Notes: generated from the sequence alone by a model not told the origin. Counted from the first letter of the stretch, positions 28,456-46,182 are shown. The stretch: DNA of 64,000 bases from Alphaproteobacteria bacterium (GCA_038121105.1 JAYONB010000005.1:130274-194273); one strand, 5' to 3'. Made by a program: numbers and translations.

Positions 28456-30009
28456 ATGGCGAGTCAAGAACCCCAGCGAGATGATCTGACGCCAAACGAG
28501 ACATCGCGGCGGCGATTGCATCTGCGCGAGGTCCGCACGGACCTCGCGGGCTACGATGGAATCGGCGTCGAAATGCGCGCCGCGAGAATTCGCGCAGGCA
28601 CAGAACTGCCGGACATTGCGCAGAAACTACGCATTAGTCAGCCGTATCTCGAAGCGATCGAGGAAGGCCGATTCGACGAACTACCCGGCCACGTTTACGT
28701 ATTCGGTTTCCTCAAGACCTATGCACGGTTTTTAGAGCTCGACGAAGGCATCGTCATCGAACGATTCCGCGCCGAGACGAGCGGCCCGCAACAAGAGGCC
28801 ACCCGATTGGCGTTCCCCTCGGCAATGGATCGTGGGCGTCTGCCGACTGGTCGGTTGCTGCTTGGCGGCCTACTCGTCGCGGTTTTGGCGTATGCCGGTT
28901 GGTTTGTGTTTACCAGCGACCAGCGCAGCACCGCGGACCGCGTCGCGGAGATACCAGAAAGACTTGCGGTCCCCGCGACTAACGAGGTCGATGCGACACC
29001 TCAGCCATCGCCGGTTGCCACATCTGAAGTCGAGCCAAACCAAGGCACCGATGCTGTTGTTGAGGCGCCGCCGCCGACCGTTGTCGAACGCGCTCCTGTT
29101 GGGCAGGACGCTGCCATTCCGACGGATTCGACACCTGGACAGGCTGCGGTCCTGGTGCCCGATGAAGCACCGGTCGTCAGTGCGACCATTCCGCCGATTG
29201 CCGATGCGGCCGAGTCGGCTGATGTTGTGACACCCCCAAGCCAGGTGGTGGAAGCCGCGCAAACGACCGCCGACGCGGAAAGTTCGGTTGTGGTCGAGAC
29301 GCCATCGCAGGAGGCTGCGCAACCGGCCTCTGTCGAGTCGCCAGCAACGCCGGTCGTGGCCCAAACGCCAACCGCAGGGACGAGTGGAGCAATACCCGAG
29401 CCCGCAAGCGCGACAAACGCACCAGTCGATCCTCAAATTACGCCCGAGCCACCCGCGCCGTCGGTTGTGGTTTCGAATCCGGTGGAAATCAGACAACTTG
29501 CCGATGCCTCGACCGCGCCTATCGATGCGGAAAACCAGGCATCGCGTGCGGCGCTGCTGGAAGCCGGGGGCGCTGGCGAACTGGCGCCATCGACCGATGA
29601 ACCGGTCGAGGTTGCCACCCGATCCGATCAGAGCGCACCGCCGCCCCTGGCGACAACGGCCGAAAACACCGATGTGGCGGCCACTGGGGAGTATGTGCCC
29701 CGTGTATTCGGCGCTGGAAACGAAGGTGCGCGTGTCGTTCTCGTCGCCGACGCCGAAAGTTGGGTGCAAGTTCGCACGACGTCAGGGGAACTCCTGCTGA
29801 CCCGCGTTCTAAAGCAGGGGGATCGCTACCTTGTCCCGAATCGATCAGACTTGGTCCTGATGACCGGAAACGTCGGTGCGCTTCAAGTACTTGTCGACGG
29901 CGATGCCATTCCGAAGCTTGGCCCGATGGGCGTCATCGGGCGCAATATTCCGCTTGATGCCGACCGGCTGCAGGTTGGTCAGGTAACGGTCGATTTCGAC
30001 GCCGAATAG
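28456..30009 (+). CDS. rodZ: RodZ-like protein (N-terminal XRE HTH, TM segment, Pro/Ala/Thr-rich linker, C-terminal DUF4115-like)
   Basis: 517 aa. HTH: ELPDIAQKLRISQPYLEAIEEGRF. TM: LLLGGLLVAVLAYAGWFVF. Long low-complexity linker. The conserved C-terminal domain spans RVVLVADAESWVQVRT to VDGDAIPKLG. Confidence 0.7.
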   Translation: MASQEPQRDDLTPNETSRRRLHLREVRTDLAGYDGIGVEMRAARIRAGTELPDIAQKLRISQPYLEAIEEGRFDELPGHVYVFGFLKTYARFLELDEGIVIERFRAETSGPQQEATRLAFPSAMDRGRLPTGRLLLGGLLVAVLAYAGWFVFTSDQRSTADRVAEIPERLAVPATNEVDATPQPSPVATSEVEPNQGTDAVVEAPPPTVVERAPVGQDAAIPTDSTPGQAAVLVPDEAPVVSATIPPIADAAESADVVTPPSQVVEAAQTTADAESSVVVETPSQEAAQPASVESPATPVVAQTPTAGTSGAIPEPASATNAPVDPQITPEPPAPSVVVSNPVEIRQLADASTAPIDAENQASRAALLEAGGAGELAPSTDEPVEVATRSDQSAPPPLATTAENTDVAATGEYVPRVFGAGNEGARVVLVADAESWVQVRTTSGELLLTRVLKQGDRYLVPNRSDLVLMTGNVGALQVLVDGDAIPKLGPMGVIGRNIPLDADRLQVGQVTVDFDAE

Positions 30010-32475: not shown

Positions 32476-33557
32476 TTTCTGACGATCAAGTCGAACAACT
32501 CCTCGGCAAGTATGCCGAGTTGGAGAAAGCTCTTTCGGCGGGCCATGGCCAGGAAGGCGATTTTGTGCGCCTGTCAAAAGAATACGCTGACATGGGCCCC
32601 ATCGTTGAGGTGGCCCAGCAACTCAAGTCCTTGCGCGGCGAAGTCGCCGGTCTAGAGGAGATCCTCGCCGATTCTGATGTCGACAAGGAGATGCGTGCGA
32701 TCGCGACCGAGGAACTCAAAGAGCACACCGAAGCGATCCCCAAGATCGAACAGAAGCTCCAGGTCTTGTTGTTGCCCAAAGACGAGGCTGACGCGCGCAA
32801 CGCGATCCTCGAAGTGCGCGCCGGCACTGGAGGTGACGAAGCGGCCATTTTTGCGGCCGACCTGATGAGAATGTACCAGCGCTATGCCGAGGCGCGGGGG
32901 TGGAAGTTCGAGGTTATGTCGGTGTCCGAGAACGATGTCGGCGGATACAAAGACGCCTCCGCAACGATCGCAGGGCGGGGCGTGTTCGAACGGATGAAAT
33001 TCGAATCCGGGGTGCACCGCGTGCAACGTGTGCCAGTCACGGAATCGAGCGGCCGGATCCACACCTCGACCGCCACTGTCGCTGTTCTTCCCGAAGCTGA
33101 AGAGGTTGATGTCGAAATCGACGAGAAAGATATCCGCGTCGATGTCTACCGGGCCTCCGGACCCGGTGGCCAGTCCGTGAACACGACCGATAGCGCCGTC
33201 CGCATTACCCATTTGCCGACGGGGATCGTCGTGACGCAGCAGGACGAAAAGTCGCAACACAAGAACCGCGCTAAGGCGATGAAGATCTTACGGGCGCGTC
33301 TGTACGAAGCGGAACGTATGGCGCGGGACTCTGAACGCGCCGAAGCGCGTCGCAGCCAAATCGGTAGTGGGGATCGGTCGGAACGCATACGAACCTACAA
33401 TTTTCCGCAGAATCGTGTGACAGATCACCGCATCAATCTGACGCTGCACAAGCTGGATCGGCTCATTCTCGGCGAAGGCCTTGACGAAATGATCGACGCA
33501 TTGGCGTCGGAAGATCAATCCGCGCGTCTCGCCGCATTAGAAAGCGGTAGCACTTAG
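32472..33557 (+). CDS. prfA: peptide chain release factor 1
   Basis: 361 aa with GGQ ([13 protein letters not shown]) and PxT ([10 protein letters not shown]) motifs. The GTG start overlaps the hisS stop (GTGA). Confidence 0.9.
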
Positions 33558-33559
33558 TA

Positions 33560-34411
33560 GTGTTGGCGTTTGACGACCTGGTTCAAAAGGCCAGCAGCAC
33601 CCTCGCGGCGCAGAAAATCGCGAATCCGCGCCGCGACGCCAACTTGCTGCTCCGACTTGCGGCGAACCTTTCGCCCGAACAGGCCATGATGGCGCCCTCG
33701 CGAGAAATCGACCGTGAGACGGCACGTCTCTTCGACGCCTTTGTGGCGCGGCGAGCGCGTGGGGAGCCGGTCTCGAGAATTCGTGGGATACGCGAATTCT
33801 GGAGCCTTGAGTTCGAAATCAACGCCGCGACGCTGGATCCGCGCGCAGACAGCGAAGTGCTCGTCGCAGCGGTCGTCGAGACATTGGCCAGACGCGGCAT
33901 ACCCGCGCCTCGGATTCTGGACCTCGGCACGGGAAGCGGCTGTCTCTTGATATCGTTGCTTTCGGAATTTCCCAGGGCCGTCGGGGTCGGCGTCGATTTG
34001 GATCCCCAAGCGACCGCCACGGCAATGCACAACGCAAGAAGGAATGGCGTCGACCGTCGCGCCAGTTTTGTCGTGTCCAATTGGCATACGGCGATCGACT
34101 CGCAGTTCGATGTTATAGTGTCCAATCCCCCTTACATCTCAACGGAAAGAATTCCCTCCCTCGAAGCCGAAGTGCGCCGTTACGACCCGCATCTTGCGCT
34201 CGACGGGGGGCGTGATGGTTTGTCTTGTTACCGTATGATCGGAAGCGCAATGCCGGGGCTTTTAGCCGAAGGTGGATTGGCGGTGTTCGAAGTGGGCTTG
34301 GGCCAGTCTCGTTCGGTCGCAGCAATCTTGACCAATGCTGGTCTGAGCGGGATCGAAATTCGGCCCGATCTAGCCGGAATCCCACGCTGTGTCCTGGCCG
34401 AGAGGGTCTGA
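33560..34411 (+). CDS. prmC: release factor glutamine N5-methyltransferase (HemK)
   Basis: 283 aa with the NPPY motif (VIVSNPPYISTERI). The start is GTG. Confidence 0.85.
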   Translation: MLAFDDLVQKASSTLAAQKIANPRRDANLLLRLAANLSPEQAMMAPSREIDRETARLFDAFVARRARGEPVSRIRGIREFWSLEFEINAATLDPRADSEVLVAAVVETLARRGIPAPRILDLGTGSGCLLISLLSEFPRAVGVGVDLDPQATATAMHNARRNGVDRRASFVVSNWHTAIDSQFDVIVSNPPYISTERIPSLEAEVRRYDPHLALDGGRDGLSCYRMIGSAMPGLLAEGGLAVFEVGLGQSRSVAAILTNAGLSGIEIRPDLAGIPRCVLAERV

Positions 34412-35129: not shown

Positions 35130-35235
35130 TAGCGCCCGACCCCCTTGTGTTGCCGTGTTGCAACACTATCTACTAGGCGATTTGTCGTTCTCGGGGCGTG
35201 ACCTCGGGAACAGTTGCATTGTCCAGTAGGTCGCC

Positions 35236-39197: not shown

Positions 39198-39321
39198 TCC
39201 GACCCGGAGTTGTTGGCGATCGACACGATGCGAATCGCAGCAGCCTATGTCAACAAAAATTTCTTATGAATCAATGCTCTCTGACCCAGACTTAAGGTTT
39301 TGGTCTGGCCAGGGCGGCAGC

Positions 39322-40734
39322 CTAGTGGCGGTCCCGAGGGGGTGTATGGAGGGCGAAGGATTGGGTCTGATAGGTCCAGAAGTGCAGTTTTGGCGACCAG
39401 TGCGCGGCAGGAAGCCCAGCTTTGCGCCATAGGTGCTCGAGGAAAAGCGGACCATGCGGCACTTGTTGCCACACTTGCGGCAGGAAGGTTGCCCGCTTGT
39501 CGCCTTCGCGAACGATGAGGCCGTCGATACCAGGCCGCAAGGCCGCTAAGAGCGCCCCCTTACTTGCCGCGGCGATCGGCGTTGGCGCACTCAGGACTGA
39601 AACCTCCAGGGCGTTGATTTGTGCAAACTCTTCGGCATTCAGGGGCGGGAACCGGGGGTCGCGAAACGCCGCCGCGAAGGCGTTGTCCGCCACATCCACG
39701 ACGAGCGGTCGCTGCGCGGTAAGCGATCCGATGCACCCGCGCAGTCTGTTCTTGAGTTTCAAGGTGACGAACGACGCGCCAGGTTCTCCCAAGGGCGGGG
39801 CATAGCCGTCGGGATTGATGGATAGGGGATGACCGTTGGCGAGCCCGTGACGGATGGATTGCCCTGCAACGTGCAGAACGACCTCGCGCTCGCCGAGGGA
39901 CAGACCTTGTGTGCCCGAGTCCTGAAACCAGATCGACGCATATCCTACCACCCGATCCCTGTCGCCGGCGGTGTCGCCCGATGTTCGATGATCCAGCAAG
40001 TGTGCTTCCAGCCCCGCCGTCTTCGCAACTTCGATCAATCCTTTTATCGGCAACCGACCGCAAGCCCCTTCGTCGGAGATGCCGTCGGCATTGAGTTTCG
40101 TGATCGCCTCCAGCGTGTCGTGGTCGAGTCTTTTGGCGGATTCGTCGTCGAGGTAATGGCTGAGATCTGAACTGACCACCACGAGTGTTCCGGGTTCGGC
40201 TGTCATCACCCTGATGACGTCGGCAACTTGTTCTGGGGTTGCGGCGCCAACGATCAACGGGATCACCGTAAACGATTCAAGGCTGCGCTGCAGAAATGGA
40301 AGGTGCACTTCGATGCAATGCTCGGCTGCGTGGGCGTCATCGCGCACGGAGACACATTCCAGGGTGTCGAGCGCTGCAATCGCCTCGGTATCGACCGGCA
40401 CCATCCCCAGTGGCGTTCTAAACGTCGCCGCGCTAGGGGCGGCGATACCCTGGAAGGCAACACGATGAGCCGGACCGAGGATCAGCACGCGCTGGAACTC
40501 GGAGCGAAACCGGGCCAGGGGTTGGTAGGCGCGCGCTGCCGTTTGTCCTGAGTAGATGAACCCGGCATGCGGGGCGACGATCGCAAATGGCGCTCGGCCG
40601 GGAGGACGCTGGCGTGCGTTGCGCGCCTCATCCATCATGCTGGCGATCAATGCGTCCAACTCGCGCCGATCGGCCGGGTAGAAAAGGCCAGCGACGGCGG
40701 CGGGCCGGGAACGACGGGCGTTTAATTCGCTCAT
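39322..40734 (-). CDS. AmmeMemoRadiSam system fusion protein: N-terminal protein B (Memo1-like) + C-terminal protein A (AMMECR1 domain)
   Basis: 470 aa. The N-terminal part has the Memo signature (GLFYPAD...IVAPHAGFIYSG). The C-terminal part has the AMMECR1 signature (LRGCIGSL...FRDPRFPPL...ATFLPQVW). Confidence 0.8.
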   Translation of the reverse strand: MSELNARRSRPAAVAGLFYPADRRELDALIASMMDEARNARQRPPGRAPFAIVAPHAGFIYSGQTAARAYQPLARFRSEFQRVLILGPAHRVAFQGIAAPSAATFRTPLGMVPVDTEAIAALDTLECVSVRDDAHAAEHCIEVHLPFLQRSLESFTVIPLIVGAATPEQVADVIRVMTAEPGTLVVVSSDLSHYLDDESAKRLDHDTLEAITKLNADGISDEGACGRLPIKGLIEVAKTAGLEAHLLDHRTSGDTAGDRDRVVGYASIWFQDSGTQGLSLGEREVVLHVAGQSIRHGLANGHPLSINPDGYAPPLGEPGASFVTLKLKNRLRGCIGSLTAQRPLVVDVADNAFAAAFRDPRFPPLNAEEFAQINALEVSVLSAPTPIAAASKGALLAALRPGIDGLIVREGDKRATFLPQVWQQVPHGPLFLEHLWRKAGLPAAHWSPKLHFWTYQTQSFALHTPPRDRH

Positions 40735-40740
40735 TGCGTC

Positions 40741-40759
40741 ACCATCTTACTAAGATGGT
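40741..40759. promoter_or_regulatory. perfect 9-1-9 inverted repeat ACCATCTTA-c-TAAGATGGT in the 52-bp divergent intergenic region of the AmmeMemoRadiSam genes (candidate operator)
   Basis: Seen directly in the sequence. It lies 7 nt from the start of the minus-strand fusion gene and 28 nt upstream of the radical SAM ATG. Confidence 0.4.
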
Positions 40760-40786
40760 ATCTCGATAATACGGCGGGAGGAACGA

Positions 40787-41970
<1,184 letters not shown>

Positions 41971-41974
<4 letters not shown>

Positions 41975-42642
41975 CCGTCCGCGTTTCGCAAAGACCCTTG
42001 CCAAGCCGTTTGCCGGGCTTCTTGGCGCTGCCGATAGGCTGCTTTGACCGCCTCGCGTCTTAGTCGCGCGTCGAGAACGCGTTCGCCATGCCACAGGGAA
42101 TTCACTCGCTGCAAATATCGTTCGGATATTCCTGGGGTCGCCGAGTGATAGCGGCCGATCGCCCGGTTCCACGAATGTGTGGCGCGAAATAGATCCTTCA
42201 AAAAGGTCGCCGCATAGTCGGCGTTGGCAGCCGGATCGAAGGCTTCCGCAAGGCTTGAGAACGCATCGGGGTGGTAATGCAGATTGACCTGCATGCAGCC
42301 GACATCGATGTTGCGCACACCGCGGGCCTGTAACGTGCGGACCGCGGCAATCGCGGCTTTCTTGTCTGGGTAGTAGCGAGAGTCCGCACCGGACGTCACC
42401 GTCCAAGGCCAGGGGTAACTTCTGCGTTGGCCGGCGTGCCACCGCCCGCTTTCGGCCAAAGAGATGGCGGACAGCACGAGTTTGGGCAGCCGATGGCGTT
42501 TTTCGGCTTCGCGCGTTTGAGCCCGGCAAATCTGGCCGACTTCTGGCGCGAATGTGCTCTCGCTCGCAACCACAGGCGTGCCGGTGGCGAGCGCAAACCC
42601 AAGGACTGCAAGGAAAACTGGGATTAAGCGATGCGGCATCAT
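41971..42642 (-). CDS. lytic transglycosylase (SLT domain) family protein
   Basis: The start was set at the Met-Met at 42642 (MMPHRLIPVFLAVLGFALATG signal peptide) with GGAGA upstream. SLT core: LVLSAISLAESG...GCMQVNLHYH. There is a 4-nt convergent overlap with the radical SAM gene. Confidence 0.8.
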
Positions 42643-42852
42643 CGGATTCTCCGTGACGAGGTACGAAGAAAAATGCGAACCGCGTGCCAACTAAGCTATG
42701 TGGCTAAAATGCCACTAGTGTCGCAAATCTGCGGCAGTCCGGATTATTCGTTTGGGCCGTTTTACGAGTAGCCACTATATGTAGTGGTGCGGCATCGCAG
42801 TCTCATGCCTTCGATGCCGAATACCCTTTCTGGGTATTTCCTCCCTAAACTC

Positions 42853-43991: not shown

Positions 43992-45352
<1,361 letters not shown>

Positions 45353-45376
45353 CGCCCTTTTGCAAAAAGGACCGAG

Positions 45377-46096
45377 ATGGGCAAGCAGAAGATCGTTGCA
45401 GGGACCAGCGGTTTCGACAAACCGTGGAAAGGCACGTTCTACCCGGAAGACATCAAGAAGCCGGAAATGCTCGCGTACTACGCCGCGCGGCTGCCGACGG
45501 TCGAGATTAACAATACCTTTTATCGGCTGCCTAAACCGGAGGTGCTGGAGAACTGGTTCGACCAAACCCCTAAGGGATTCCAGTTCGCAATTAAGGCCTC
45601 GCGGCGCATCACTCATATCAAGCGCTTGAACGACGTCGAGGACGCAACCCAGTACCTGATGGAAACGACCGCGGGCCTGAAACAAAAACTCGGCCCGATC
45701 CTTTTTCAGCTGCCGCCGAACGCTAAGAAGAACACCGAGCGTCTCAAGACTTTCCTCGGCACGTTGCCGGTCGATCGCCGCGTGACGTTCGAATTTCGCC
45801 ACCCCTCTTGGTTTGAGCCCGACGCGCTTGGCGCTTTGCGGGACCACGGGGCCGCGCTCTGCATCGCCGATACCGACGACGACCTTCACGTACCATTGGA
45901 ATCGACGACGGATTGGGGCTACCTGCGACTTCGCAAGGAGACCTATACCGCTAGGAGTCTTCAGAAGTGGGTCACGCAAATCACCGCGCAGCCCTAGCGC
46001 GATACCTACGTCTATTGCAAAGGCGAAGAAGCAGGGTATGGCCCACGCTGGGCCGCCCAATTGATGGCGCTCGGCGCGAAAAAAGACGGCAAATAG
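45377..46096 (+). pseudogene. DUF72 (YecE-like) family gene interrupted by in-frame TAG at 45995-45997; conserved C-terminus continues in frame to TAG at 46094-46096
   Basis: The ORF 45377-45997 has a DUF72-like N-terminus (FYPEDIKKPEMLAYYAARLPTVEINNTFY). In-frame after the TAG it reads RDTYVYCKGEEAGYGPRWAAQLMALGAKKDGK, which matches the family's conserved D-x-Y-V-Y-F-N-N...G-x-A...L C-terminal block. Confidence 0.6.
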
Positions 46097-46153
46097 CCAC
46101 CAATGCCGCGTATTGCGGAAAATGGCCGTAATTCGAGGGCGCGACGGCCCCGG

Positions 46154-46182
46154 TTGACTTGCCGCCGATCGGTCCATATTTT
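46154..46182 (+). promoter_or_regulatory. candidate sigma70-type promoter for rpmJ (TTGACT-17-TATTTT)
   Basis: ggTTGACTtgccgccgatcggtccaTATTTTgcg lies about 30 nt upstream of the rpmJ ATG. Confidence 0.35.

Follow-up and report, generated by a model that had tools for sequence, protein, structure and literature searches.

The divergent AmmeMemoRadiSam genes of this locus raise the question of whether the perfect palindrome between them is a control element shared by both genes and, if so, of which kind. The window, by which we mean the whole 64,000-nucleotide stretch of alphaproteobacterial DNA that was analyzed, carries on its minus strand a gene encoding a Memo-AMMECR1 (B-A) fusion protein (ORF 39322-40734, 470 aa), composed of a TIGR04336 AmmeMemoSam_B (Memo-like) domain at residues 10-270 followed by a TIGR04335 AmmeMemoSam_A (AMMECR1-like) domain at residues 285-460. 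The radical SAM gene is encoded on the plus strand (ORF 40787-41974, 395 aa, TIGR04337 at 632 bits). In the loci retrieved here, the AMMECR1/MEMO1/radical SAM trio spans many bacterial phyla; it has homologs in archaea and eukaryotes and, to our knowledge, no established function. In a full-text literature search, AmmeMemoRadiSam was mentioned in six papers, never in a title or abstract, and nothing was found on its regulation.

The ends of the flanking ORFs leave a gap of 52 bp (40735-40786), as reported by the sequence-only reading from which this work started, and the palindrome sequence, coordinates, and gene identities given there were also correct. Its description of the spacer as almost filled by the palindrome was overstated, since the palindrome occupies 19 of 52 nt. 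The element is a 9-1-9 inverted repeat without mismatch, the arms of which, ACCATCTTA (40741-40749) and TAAGATGGT (40751-40759), are exact reverse complements about C40750. In order, positions 40732-40789 read CAT TGCGTC ACCATCTTA C TAAGATGGT ATCTCGATAATACGGCGGGAGGAACGA ATG. The landmarks of the spacer are as follows.

40732-40734, minus strand: ATG of the B-A fusion gene, from ORF calls
40741-40759, no strand: perfect 9-1-9 palindrome ACCATCTTA c TAAGATGGT; L081, L082, and L092 share its inner 17 nt (40742-40758) unchanged
40744-40756, no strand: conserved core ATCyTACTAAGAT, a 6-1-6 dyad, with 12 of 13 positions invariant in seven lineages
40787-40789, plus strand: ATG of the AmmeMemoRadiSam radical SAM gene, from ORF calls

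The 19-mer occurs once in the 64-kb window. With a minimum arm length of 9 nt and a maximum loop of 4 nt, the whole window (G+C content, 60%) contains six distinct perfect inverted repeats, or eight including nested ones, and first-order Markov shuffles gave 2.6 +/- 1.8 on the nested count. Because similar perfect repeats are thus not rare in the window, the palindrome alone is worth little: a 9-bp perfect inverted repeat is by itself weak evidence and unremarkable somewhere in a window of this size. In one given 52-nt spacer, the chance expectation of such a repeat is about 0.002. The longest perfect inverted repeat of the window is a G+C-rich 11-2-11 repeat, CGCGAGGTCCG ca CGGACCTCGCG, at 28525-28548, near the start of the 28456-30009 ORF. 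The decisive evidence for a putative control element between the two genes is its conservation at orthologous loci.

A genome scan with the radical SAM protein retrieved the same species (L001, 99% identity, an uncultured alphaproteobacterial MAG), and all other loci showed at most 72% identity. A divergent B(-A)/radical SAM arrangement with short gaps was present in 55 of 80 genome loci. Searching with the B-A protein yielded closer relatives at 84, 76, 71, 71, 68, and 57-62% identity. The set of seven lineages used below comprises the window, L081, L082, L092, L083, L085, and L100, with B-A identities to the window of 100, 84, 76, 68, 61, 62, and 57%, respectively. Gene calls gave the 52-nt gap in L082, L083, L084, and both 71%-identity lineages, P0004 and P0005, for which the comparison covers gene layout, their spacer sequences being outside the alignment; for L081, L092, L085, and L100, the 52-nt gap was deduced from the gap-free alignment. 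The spacers are listed in window orientation, with the reverse complement of the B-A start codon, left flank, dyad, right flank, remainder, and radical SAM start codon separated by slashes.

Window: CAT / TGCGTC / ACCATCTTACTAAGATGGT / ATCTCG / ATAATACGGCGGGAGGAACGA / ATG
L081: CAT / CAGGAC / ACCATCTTACTAAGATGGT / GTCCTG / ATGAAACGGCGGGAGGAGCGA / ATG
L082: CAT / GGCGCC / TCCATCTTACTAAGATGGG / GTCTCC / ATGAAACGGCGCCATCGTTAA / ATG
L092: CAT / ATCAAC / ACCATCTTACTAAGATGGT / GTTCTC / ATGAAACGATGTCCCTAACAA / ATG
L083: CAT / GTCACC / CCAATCCTACTAAGATGGT / GGCCCG / ATGATATCGTGTAATTAGGCT / ATG
L085: CAT / CTCCAC / CTAATCCTACTAAGATCGT / TACCGT / ATGGTACTGCGAAACTGATCG / ATG
L100: CAT / TTCCAC / ATGATCCTACTAAGATAGA / GGCTTG / GCGGTACCGAGAAATTAGTCG / ATG

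Across all seven lineages, the spacer measures 52 nt with zero indels, and the position of the palindrome is fixed. Invariant positions number 12 of 13 within the core (40744-40756) and 4 of 39 in the remaining spacer (Fisher p = 1e-7, seven lineages), compared with only 6 of 40 third-codon positions in the adjacent coding DNA (six-lineage set). The core is composed of A/T at 9 of 13 positions, with C at 40746 and 40750, G at 40754, and the pyrimidine y at 40747. Its symmetry is kept at 5 to 6 of 6 pairs in all seven lineages and reaches 8 to 9 bp per arm in four; the 17-nt sequence CCATCTTACTAAGATGG is unchanged in the four closest lineages. Since the core is unchanged in related uncultured bacteria, these data argue that the palindrome is a real control element, under purifying selection in a clade of uncultured alphaproteobacteria.

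This conservation has a clear phylogenetic boundary. A motif scan covered 101 loci totaling several hundred kilobases, 12 from the palindrome clade and 89 others. The pattern ATCYTANTARGAT was found once per locus in 12 of 12 clade loci, always in this spacer, and in 0 of 89 other loci. Neither the sister clade nor any of 54 more distant divergent loci has the palindrome. Sister clade members (L087/88, L089/90, L098, L099, and L101; 58-62% B-A identity) have longer spacers and no dyad. A general feature of AmmeMemoRadiSam loci was rejected as an explanation, as the spacers of the 55 divergent loci (80 scanned) share no dyad or motif, and TAAGATGG at no more than one mismatch was not enriched in divergent spacers (7 matches versus 5.5 expected). 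Conservation at orthologous loci, proposed by the sequence-only reading as a check on the palindrome, was therefore confirmed inside one clade, for the 13-nt core in seven lineages and the 17-nt palindrome in four, and not beyond it. Isolated matches occur in distant loci: L010 has an exact copy of the half-site ACCATCTTA, and L065 has one of TAAGATGG. In L010, a distant alphaproteobacterial locus (B-A identity, 45%), TAAGATGGTGT lies on the minus strand about 47 nt upstream of the B-A start; it is an exact 11-nt match to one arm as found in L081 and L092, and the partner arm is absent. The sister clade has a conserved word of its own, CyATGTATG, located 7-8 nt from the B-A start codon (L087:2939-3000, L098, L101, L089, and L099), and in some members this region forms a 6-4-6 inverted repeat, TCATAC ccat GTATGA.

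In two relatives, the arms extend further than in the window. L081:130-168, corresponding to window positions 40731-40769, is a perfect 19-1-19 palindrome (TCATCAGGACACCATCTTA c TAAGATGGTGTCCTGATGA) that includes the B-A start codon and ribosome-binding site (RBS), and L092 has perfect arms of 12 bp. The sequences of these arm extensions are lineage-specific. At flank positions 10-15 of the four closest lineages, 15 of 24 cells are complementary versus 6 expected (p = 1e-4). No operator needs such extensions, and so strong an RNA hairpin would be harmful; we therefore infer that they are a by-product of templated quasi-palindrome correction, a known mutational mechanism, acting on an already palindromic core.

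Both halves of the core resemble −10 hexamers facing outward, and several further candidate expression signals surround them.

40739-40743, minus strand: RBS-like GGTGA, located 4 nt from the ATG of the B-A gene; its GGT forms the outer end of the palindrome arm
40744-40749, minus strand: −10-like TAAGAT (TAGGAT in L083, L085, and L100) facing the B-A gene, 9 nt before its ATG; putative function
40751-40756, plus strand: −10-like TAAGAT, invariant in 7/7 lineages and oriented toward the radical SAM gene, the ATG of which follows after 30 nt; putative function
40766-40772, no strand: weaker conserved block ATAATAC (in relatives ATGAAAC, ATGATAT, or ATGGTAC), mirroring the B-A start codon
40776-40781, plus strand: GGGAGG, RBS of the radical SAM gene, −11.2 kcal/mol, in the window lineage and L081 only

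A scan of the seven lineages for σ70-like geometries identified two arrangements present in 7/7, both on the palindrome hexamers. On the minus strand, a −35 candidate GTwyCA (40772-40767) is separated by 17 bp from TA[AG]GAT (40749-40744), and on the plus strand, TCGCkC, located within the first B-A codons, is separated by 18 bp from TAAGAT (40751-40756); each −35 candidate matches the consensus at 3/6 positions. Hexamer positions T1, A2, A5, and T6 are invariant on both strands, and the lone variable core base corresponds to position 3 of the minus-strand hexamer. TAAGAT at 40751-40756 is the sole plus-strand hexamer with A2 and T6 conserved in all seven lineages, which bears out the suggestion of the sequence-only reading that the palindrome overlaps the −35/−10 zone of the radical SAM gene. 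Transcription starts predicted from the palindrome hexamers are located at ~40737 (minus) and ~40763 (plus), about 26 bp apart. A promoter scan of 900 nt of the window returned a single match, on the minus strand, with −35 CGGACA (40793-40788), a 16-bp spacing, and −10 TATTAT (40771-40766). This −10 keeps A2 and T6 in 3/7 lineages, and the predicted start of the B-A mRNA would coincide with the outer edge of the palindrome, at ~40759. The block at 40766-40772 could serve either as a −35-like GTwyCA at 17 bp from the minus-strand hexamer or, for a B-A promoter starting at the palindrome edge, as a −10-like TAyyAT.

Against a generic 16S 3' tail, the GGTGA duplex was computed at −9.3 kcal/mol, in the top 3-4% of the background (16-mers, −3.9 +/- 2.6 kcal/mol). 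The 9 nt between the minus-strand hexamer and the B-A ATG are variable and nearly always include GGTG or GGAG, and the duplex energy is kept at −7.5 to −10.8 kcal/mol in 6/7 lineages though these 9-nt sequences differ. Because of this maintenance, and because distant B-A orthologs are mostly leadered with a canonical Shine-Dalgarno sequence, we conclude that the B-A-proximal arm overlaps the real RBS of the B-A gene, in agreement with the earlier claim of such an overlap. A leaderless design as a general trait of B-A genes was rejected, given that TAnnnT was found 4-12 nt before the chosen start in only 7 of 51 distant loci. The radical SAM gene has duplex energies of −1.6 to −3.0 kcal/mol in the five lineages other than the window and L081.

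Symmetric to the B-A ATG, at 16 nt from the dyad center, five of the seven lineages carry a mirror ATG. An ATG is thereby found at the 10th nt after each hexamer, for the B-A gene in 7/7 lineages and on the mirror side in 5/7. In L082, L092, L083, and L085, the mirror ATG opens a mini-ORF of 5-6 codons (MKRRHR*, MKRCP*, MISCN*, and MVLRN*), the stop of which lies 0-3 nt before the radical SAM ATG, and these four lineages lack a radical SAM RBS (−1.6 to −2.9 kcal/mol). The mirror ATG of L081 reads in frame into the radical SAM gene, L100 has neither a mirror ATG nor a radical SAM RBS (−3.0 kcal/mol), and in the window lineage, the mirror ATG is now ATA, accompanied by the strong GGGAGG.

No regulator gene is adjacent to the palindrome, as noted previously: none was found among the ORFs of at least 150 aa within ~8 kb. 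These encode RF1, PrmC, DUF4167, ClpB, an M23 peptidase, an SLT-like protein, an FGase-like protein, an alpha/beta hydrolase, pyruvate kinase, a TPR protein, and acyl-CoA dehydrogenase. Two neighboring ORFs had no Pfam match (33554-34087, minus, and 45287-46177), the former of which overlaps the PrmC ORF on the opposite strand. The order FGase-like, SLT-like, radical SAM, B-A, M23 peptidase, and ClpB is kept in close relatives. The radical SAM ORF and the convergent, weakly SLT-like ORF of 239 aa (41971-42690, minus) overlap at their 3' ends by 4 nt (41971-41974), and this gene order was kept in all relatives fetched. On the other side, the 124-nt gap between the B-A and M23 peptidase genes contains a perfect TTGACA, 17 bp, and CATCGT at 39225-39253 (minus) and no terminator-like site; on these grounds, the M23 peptidase gene may have its own promoter instead of depending on the one controlled by the palindrome.

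Taken at its most general, the palindrome is most likely a shared on/off site, that is, a conserved, sequence-specific cis-regulatory element common to both divergent genes. Its position suits joint control, because it overlaps both the B-A RBS and the sole σ70-like geometry conserved in each direction. Our preferred and still tentative explanation, to which we would give a little less than even weight, is that it is the operator of a putative symmetric regulator encoded elsewhere in the genome, placed over two abutting −10 hexamers and controlling both genes jointly. A symmetric, presumably dimeric, DNA-binding regulator would bind the dyad, which covers the only conserved −10-like hexamers (outward TAAGAT on both strands) and the B-A RBS. 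The bound dimer would exclude RNA polymerase from both promoters, and the B-A fusion gene would be turned on and off jointly with the radical SAM gene, co-repression being the simplest case. The binding of a protein, the assignment of the promoters, and the direction of regulation are inferred. The symmetry of the site goes beyond that of two −10 boxes, as the two hexamers deviate from the consensus in the same way, with G at position 4 in each, and the weakly read middle hexamer positions are as invariant as T1, A2, and T6. At a saturated neutral background, the shared G4 and the invariant middle positions point to a symmetric, sequence-specific ligand, and the outward TAnnAT on both strands together with the invariant center points to −10 function. 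An operator laid over −10 hexamers is the simplest model because it covers both sets of features. The dimeric repressor or activator site envisaged by the sequence-only reading is thus favored by conservation and geometry; however, the same bases can be read as abutting −10 hexamers that need no regulator, and binding is putative.

Several observations count against an operator. The central base and innermost TA/TA are invariant, which is unusual for helix-turn-helix dimers and natural for −10 hexamers; each half fits an outward TAnnAT, rare for a random operator; the arm extensions of 12 bp in L092 and 19 bp in L081 go beyond what an operator needs; and there is no regulator within ~8 kb, nor a copy of the palindrome in the sister clade and distant loci. 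Searches of the 64-kb window for a second site gave 16 matches to the 13-nt core at up to three mismatches (20 expected) and eight half-sites with one mismatch (4.3 expected), none of them qualifying as a second site. Likewise, no second site was found among the 101 loci, and this set therefore carries no regulon signal. No known operator with ATCTTA/TAAGAT was found in the literature search.

A bidirectional core promoter without any regulator is a reading that we regard as rather unlikely and that, like the operator, explains most of the data, each of the two accounting for something the other does not. Two abutting outward −10 hexamers, TA(A/G)GAT, each followed by GG, would give rise to a B-A mRNA that has little or no leader and to a radical SAM mRNA whose 5' end lies ~23 nt before the ATG, and the palindromy would stem from −10 symmetry and from arm homogenization by template-switch mutation. 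This agrees with the finding that the only σ70-like geometry conserved in 7/7 lineages uses the palindrome hexamers, with the invariance of T1, A2, A5, and T6 and the restriction of core variation to hexamer position 3, with an A/T content of 9/13 in a genome of 60% G+C, and with the ATG at the 10th nt after each hexamer (B-A, 7/7; mirror, 5/7). Distant orthologous spacers also contain A/T-rich −10-like hexamers on both strands, the lineage-specific growth of the arms in L081 and L092 would fit mutational quasi-palindrome correction, and symmetric −10 elements are described to drive divergent transcription (bioRxiv 10.1101/2020.01.31.928960). On the other hand, the predicted B-A start lies downstream of an RBS-like motif kept in 6/7 lineages despite sequence turnover, distant B-A orthologs are mostly leadered with canonical Shine-Dalgarno sequences, both −35 candidates match at 3/6, and generic −10 function leaves the invariant positions 3-5 and the common non-consensus G4 unexplained. 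Furthermore, the hexamers abut, and their starts, ~26 bp apart, fall outside the 7-25 bp definition and the favored distances of 29, 23, 18, 12, 10, and 7 bp reported for bidirectional promoters. Another reading, which we consider doubtful, is a compact, mirror-symmetric expression module in place of a classical operator, in which each arm would contribute a −10 hexamer, a GG(T)G tract, and, exactly 10 nt downstream, an ATG. The 13-19 bp element would launch a leaderless or nearly leaderless B-A mRNA in one direction and a leaderless mini-ORF of 5-6 codons in the other. Since the mini-ORF stop lies 0-3 nt before the radical SAM ATG, the mini-ORF could be translationally coupled to the radical SAM gene, which is RBS-less in the four mini-ORF lineages; the window lineage would have swapped this coupling for the new GGGAGG, losing the mirror ATG (ATA).

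A 5'-leader RNA hairpin that masks the RBS of the B-A mRNA and either limits translation or stabilizes the message appears improbable. Transcription from the promoter found by the scan (−35 CGGACA, 40793-40788; −10 TATTAT, 40771-40766), the only match in 900 nt, would start at ~40759, and the mRNA would open with ACCAUCUUAGUAAGAUGGU, a 5'-terminal hairpin with part of the RBS (GGUGA) in its 3' arm. The minus-strand RNA hairpin, which includes the GGU of GGUGA, has a predicted energy of −11.7 kcal/mol (z = −4.0). By sequence inspection, its 3' arm plus GA pairs at 9/11 positions with the 16S 3' tail, and its 5' arm mimics the anti-Shine-Dalgarno sequence; the computed duplex energy is −9.3 kcal/mol. 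Moreover, where three lineages have C in place of T at 40747, a G-U wobble results on the minus strand, and flank positions 10-15 of the four closest lineages are paired in 15/24 cells (6 expected, p = 1e-4). Against this stands the lack of pairing covariation, which stayed within shuffles for helices of 8, 9, and 19 pairs on either strand of the seven-lineage alignments, with 86% and 84% of cells paired on the two strands. Arm positions 7-9 are unpaired in L085 and L100, where the B-A RBS lies outside the stem and the core is kept. Since covariation does not exceed shuffles and these outer pairs are lost, the conserved thing is the sequence and not the pairing. In addition, the proposed −10 keeps A2 and T6 in just 3/7 lineages, and in L081, the full hairpin would reach −34 kcal/mol as RNA, burying both RBS and AUG, which is hard to square with expression if it is transcribed whole. 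An Rfam scan of 40500-41000 gave only three sub-threshold matches (E >= 0.5), none over the palindrome; a hairpin transcribed as a whole is putative. A palindrome that arose by chance or by mutation alone, without a function of its own, is by far the least probable reading. It could draw on the six distinct perfect 9-bp repeats in the window (eight counting nested ones, versus ~2.6 expected on the nested count) and on a single exact, unrelated occurrence of the 17-mer in a 392-kb contig of IMG/VR; it is opposed by a core that is invariant in seven lineages with saturated neutral sites and by a fixed position in an indel-free 52-nt spacer. What probability remains beyond operator, core promoter, hairpin, and chance belongs to mechanisms outside these four.

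The palindrome was compared with several known systems. With the palindromic operators of dimeric bacterial transcription factors in divergent regions, it shares dyad symmetry, conservation at orthologous loci, overlap with the promoter or RBS of both genes, and, in distant lineages, a well-kept half-site beside a slightly degenerate one. Unlike these, it has an invariant dyad center and half-site centers only 7-10 bp apart, and it belongs to this class as a candidate. In the bidirectional promoters described by Warman et al., −10 elements overlap and starts are mostly 18 bp apart, with a defined range of 7-25 bp (bioRxiv 10.1101/2020.01.31.928960). The palindrome resembles these in having opposite-strand −10-like hexamers in one short pseudo-symmetric sequence serving divergent genes, and such hexamers are present on both strands in 7/7 lineages; however, they abut with 1 bp between them instead of overlapping, and the predicted starts, ~26 bp apart, exceed the range. 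RBS-sequestering leader hairpins, e.g., RNA thermometers, likewise have an anti-Shine-Dalgarno-like arm able to pair with an arm containing part of the RBS directly upstream of the start, but here there is no covariation, two lineages have lost the pairing of the RBS part, and no Rfam family matches.

Three more specific identities were considered and rejected. Resemblance of the palindrome arms to the σ32 consensus CCCCATnT raised the possibility of a heat-shock promoter; on neither strand are the arms CACCATCT preceded by a CTTG at the required 17-18 bp, and the clpB promoter differs. Upstream of clpB, at 35144-35171, there is a heat-shock-type promoter-like sequence, CTTG-N17-ACTATCT, which resembles the alphaproteobacterial σ32 consensus. 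A mobile-element or phage site was dismissed, as the single exact 17-mer in IMG/VR has no AmmeMemoRadiSam genes in the surrounding 2.8 kb and is consistent with chance. The RcsB box of NarL/FixJ-type response regulators, TN(G/A)GA-N4-TC(T/C)NA (PMC7913699), contains the same half-site words, TA(A/G)GA and TC(T/C)TA, and shares the R/Y degeneracy at the single variable position of the core. In the palindrome, their order is everted and the spacing is 1 bp, not 4 (TCYTA-N-TARGA), which excludes an RcsB box as such, and we regard the likeness of the half-sites as only a lead towards LuxR/FixJ-type regulators.

The motif is new, and the kind of element that it appears to represent is familiar; its interpretation as an operator is plausible but unproven. 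The value of the finding is limited by the confinement of the element to one clade of uncultured alphaproteobacteria, as opposed to AmmeMemoRadiSam loci in general. Within this clade, the conserved control element offers a concrete experimental handle on the regulation of the AmmeMemoRadiSam system: the 19-mer could be used as bait for a binder or as a reporter for switching conditions, and either could hint at the physiological role of this system.
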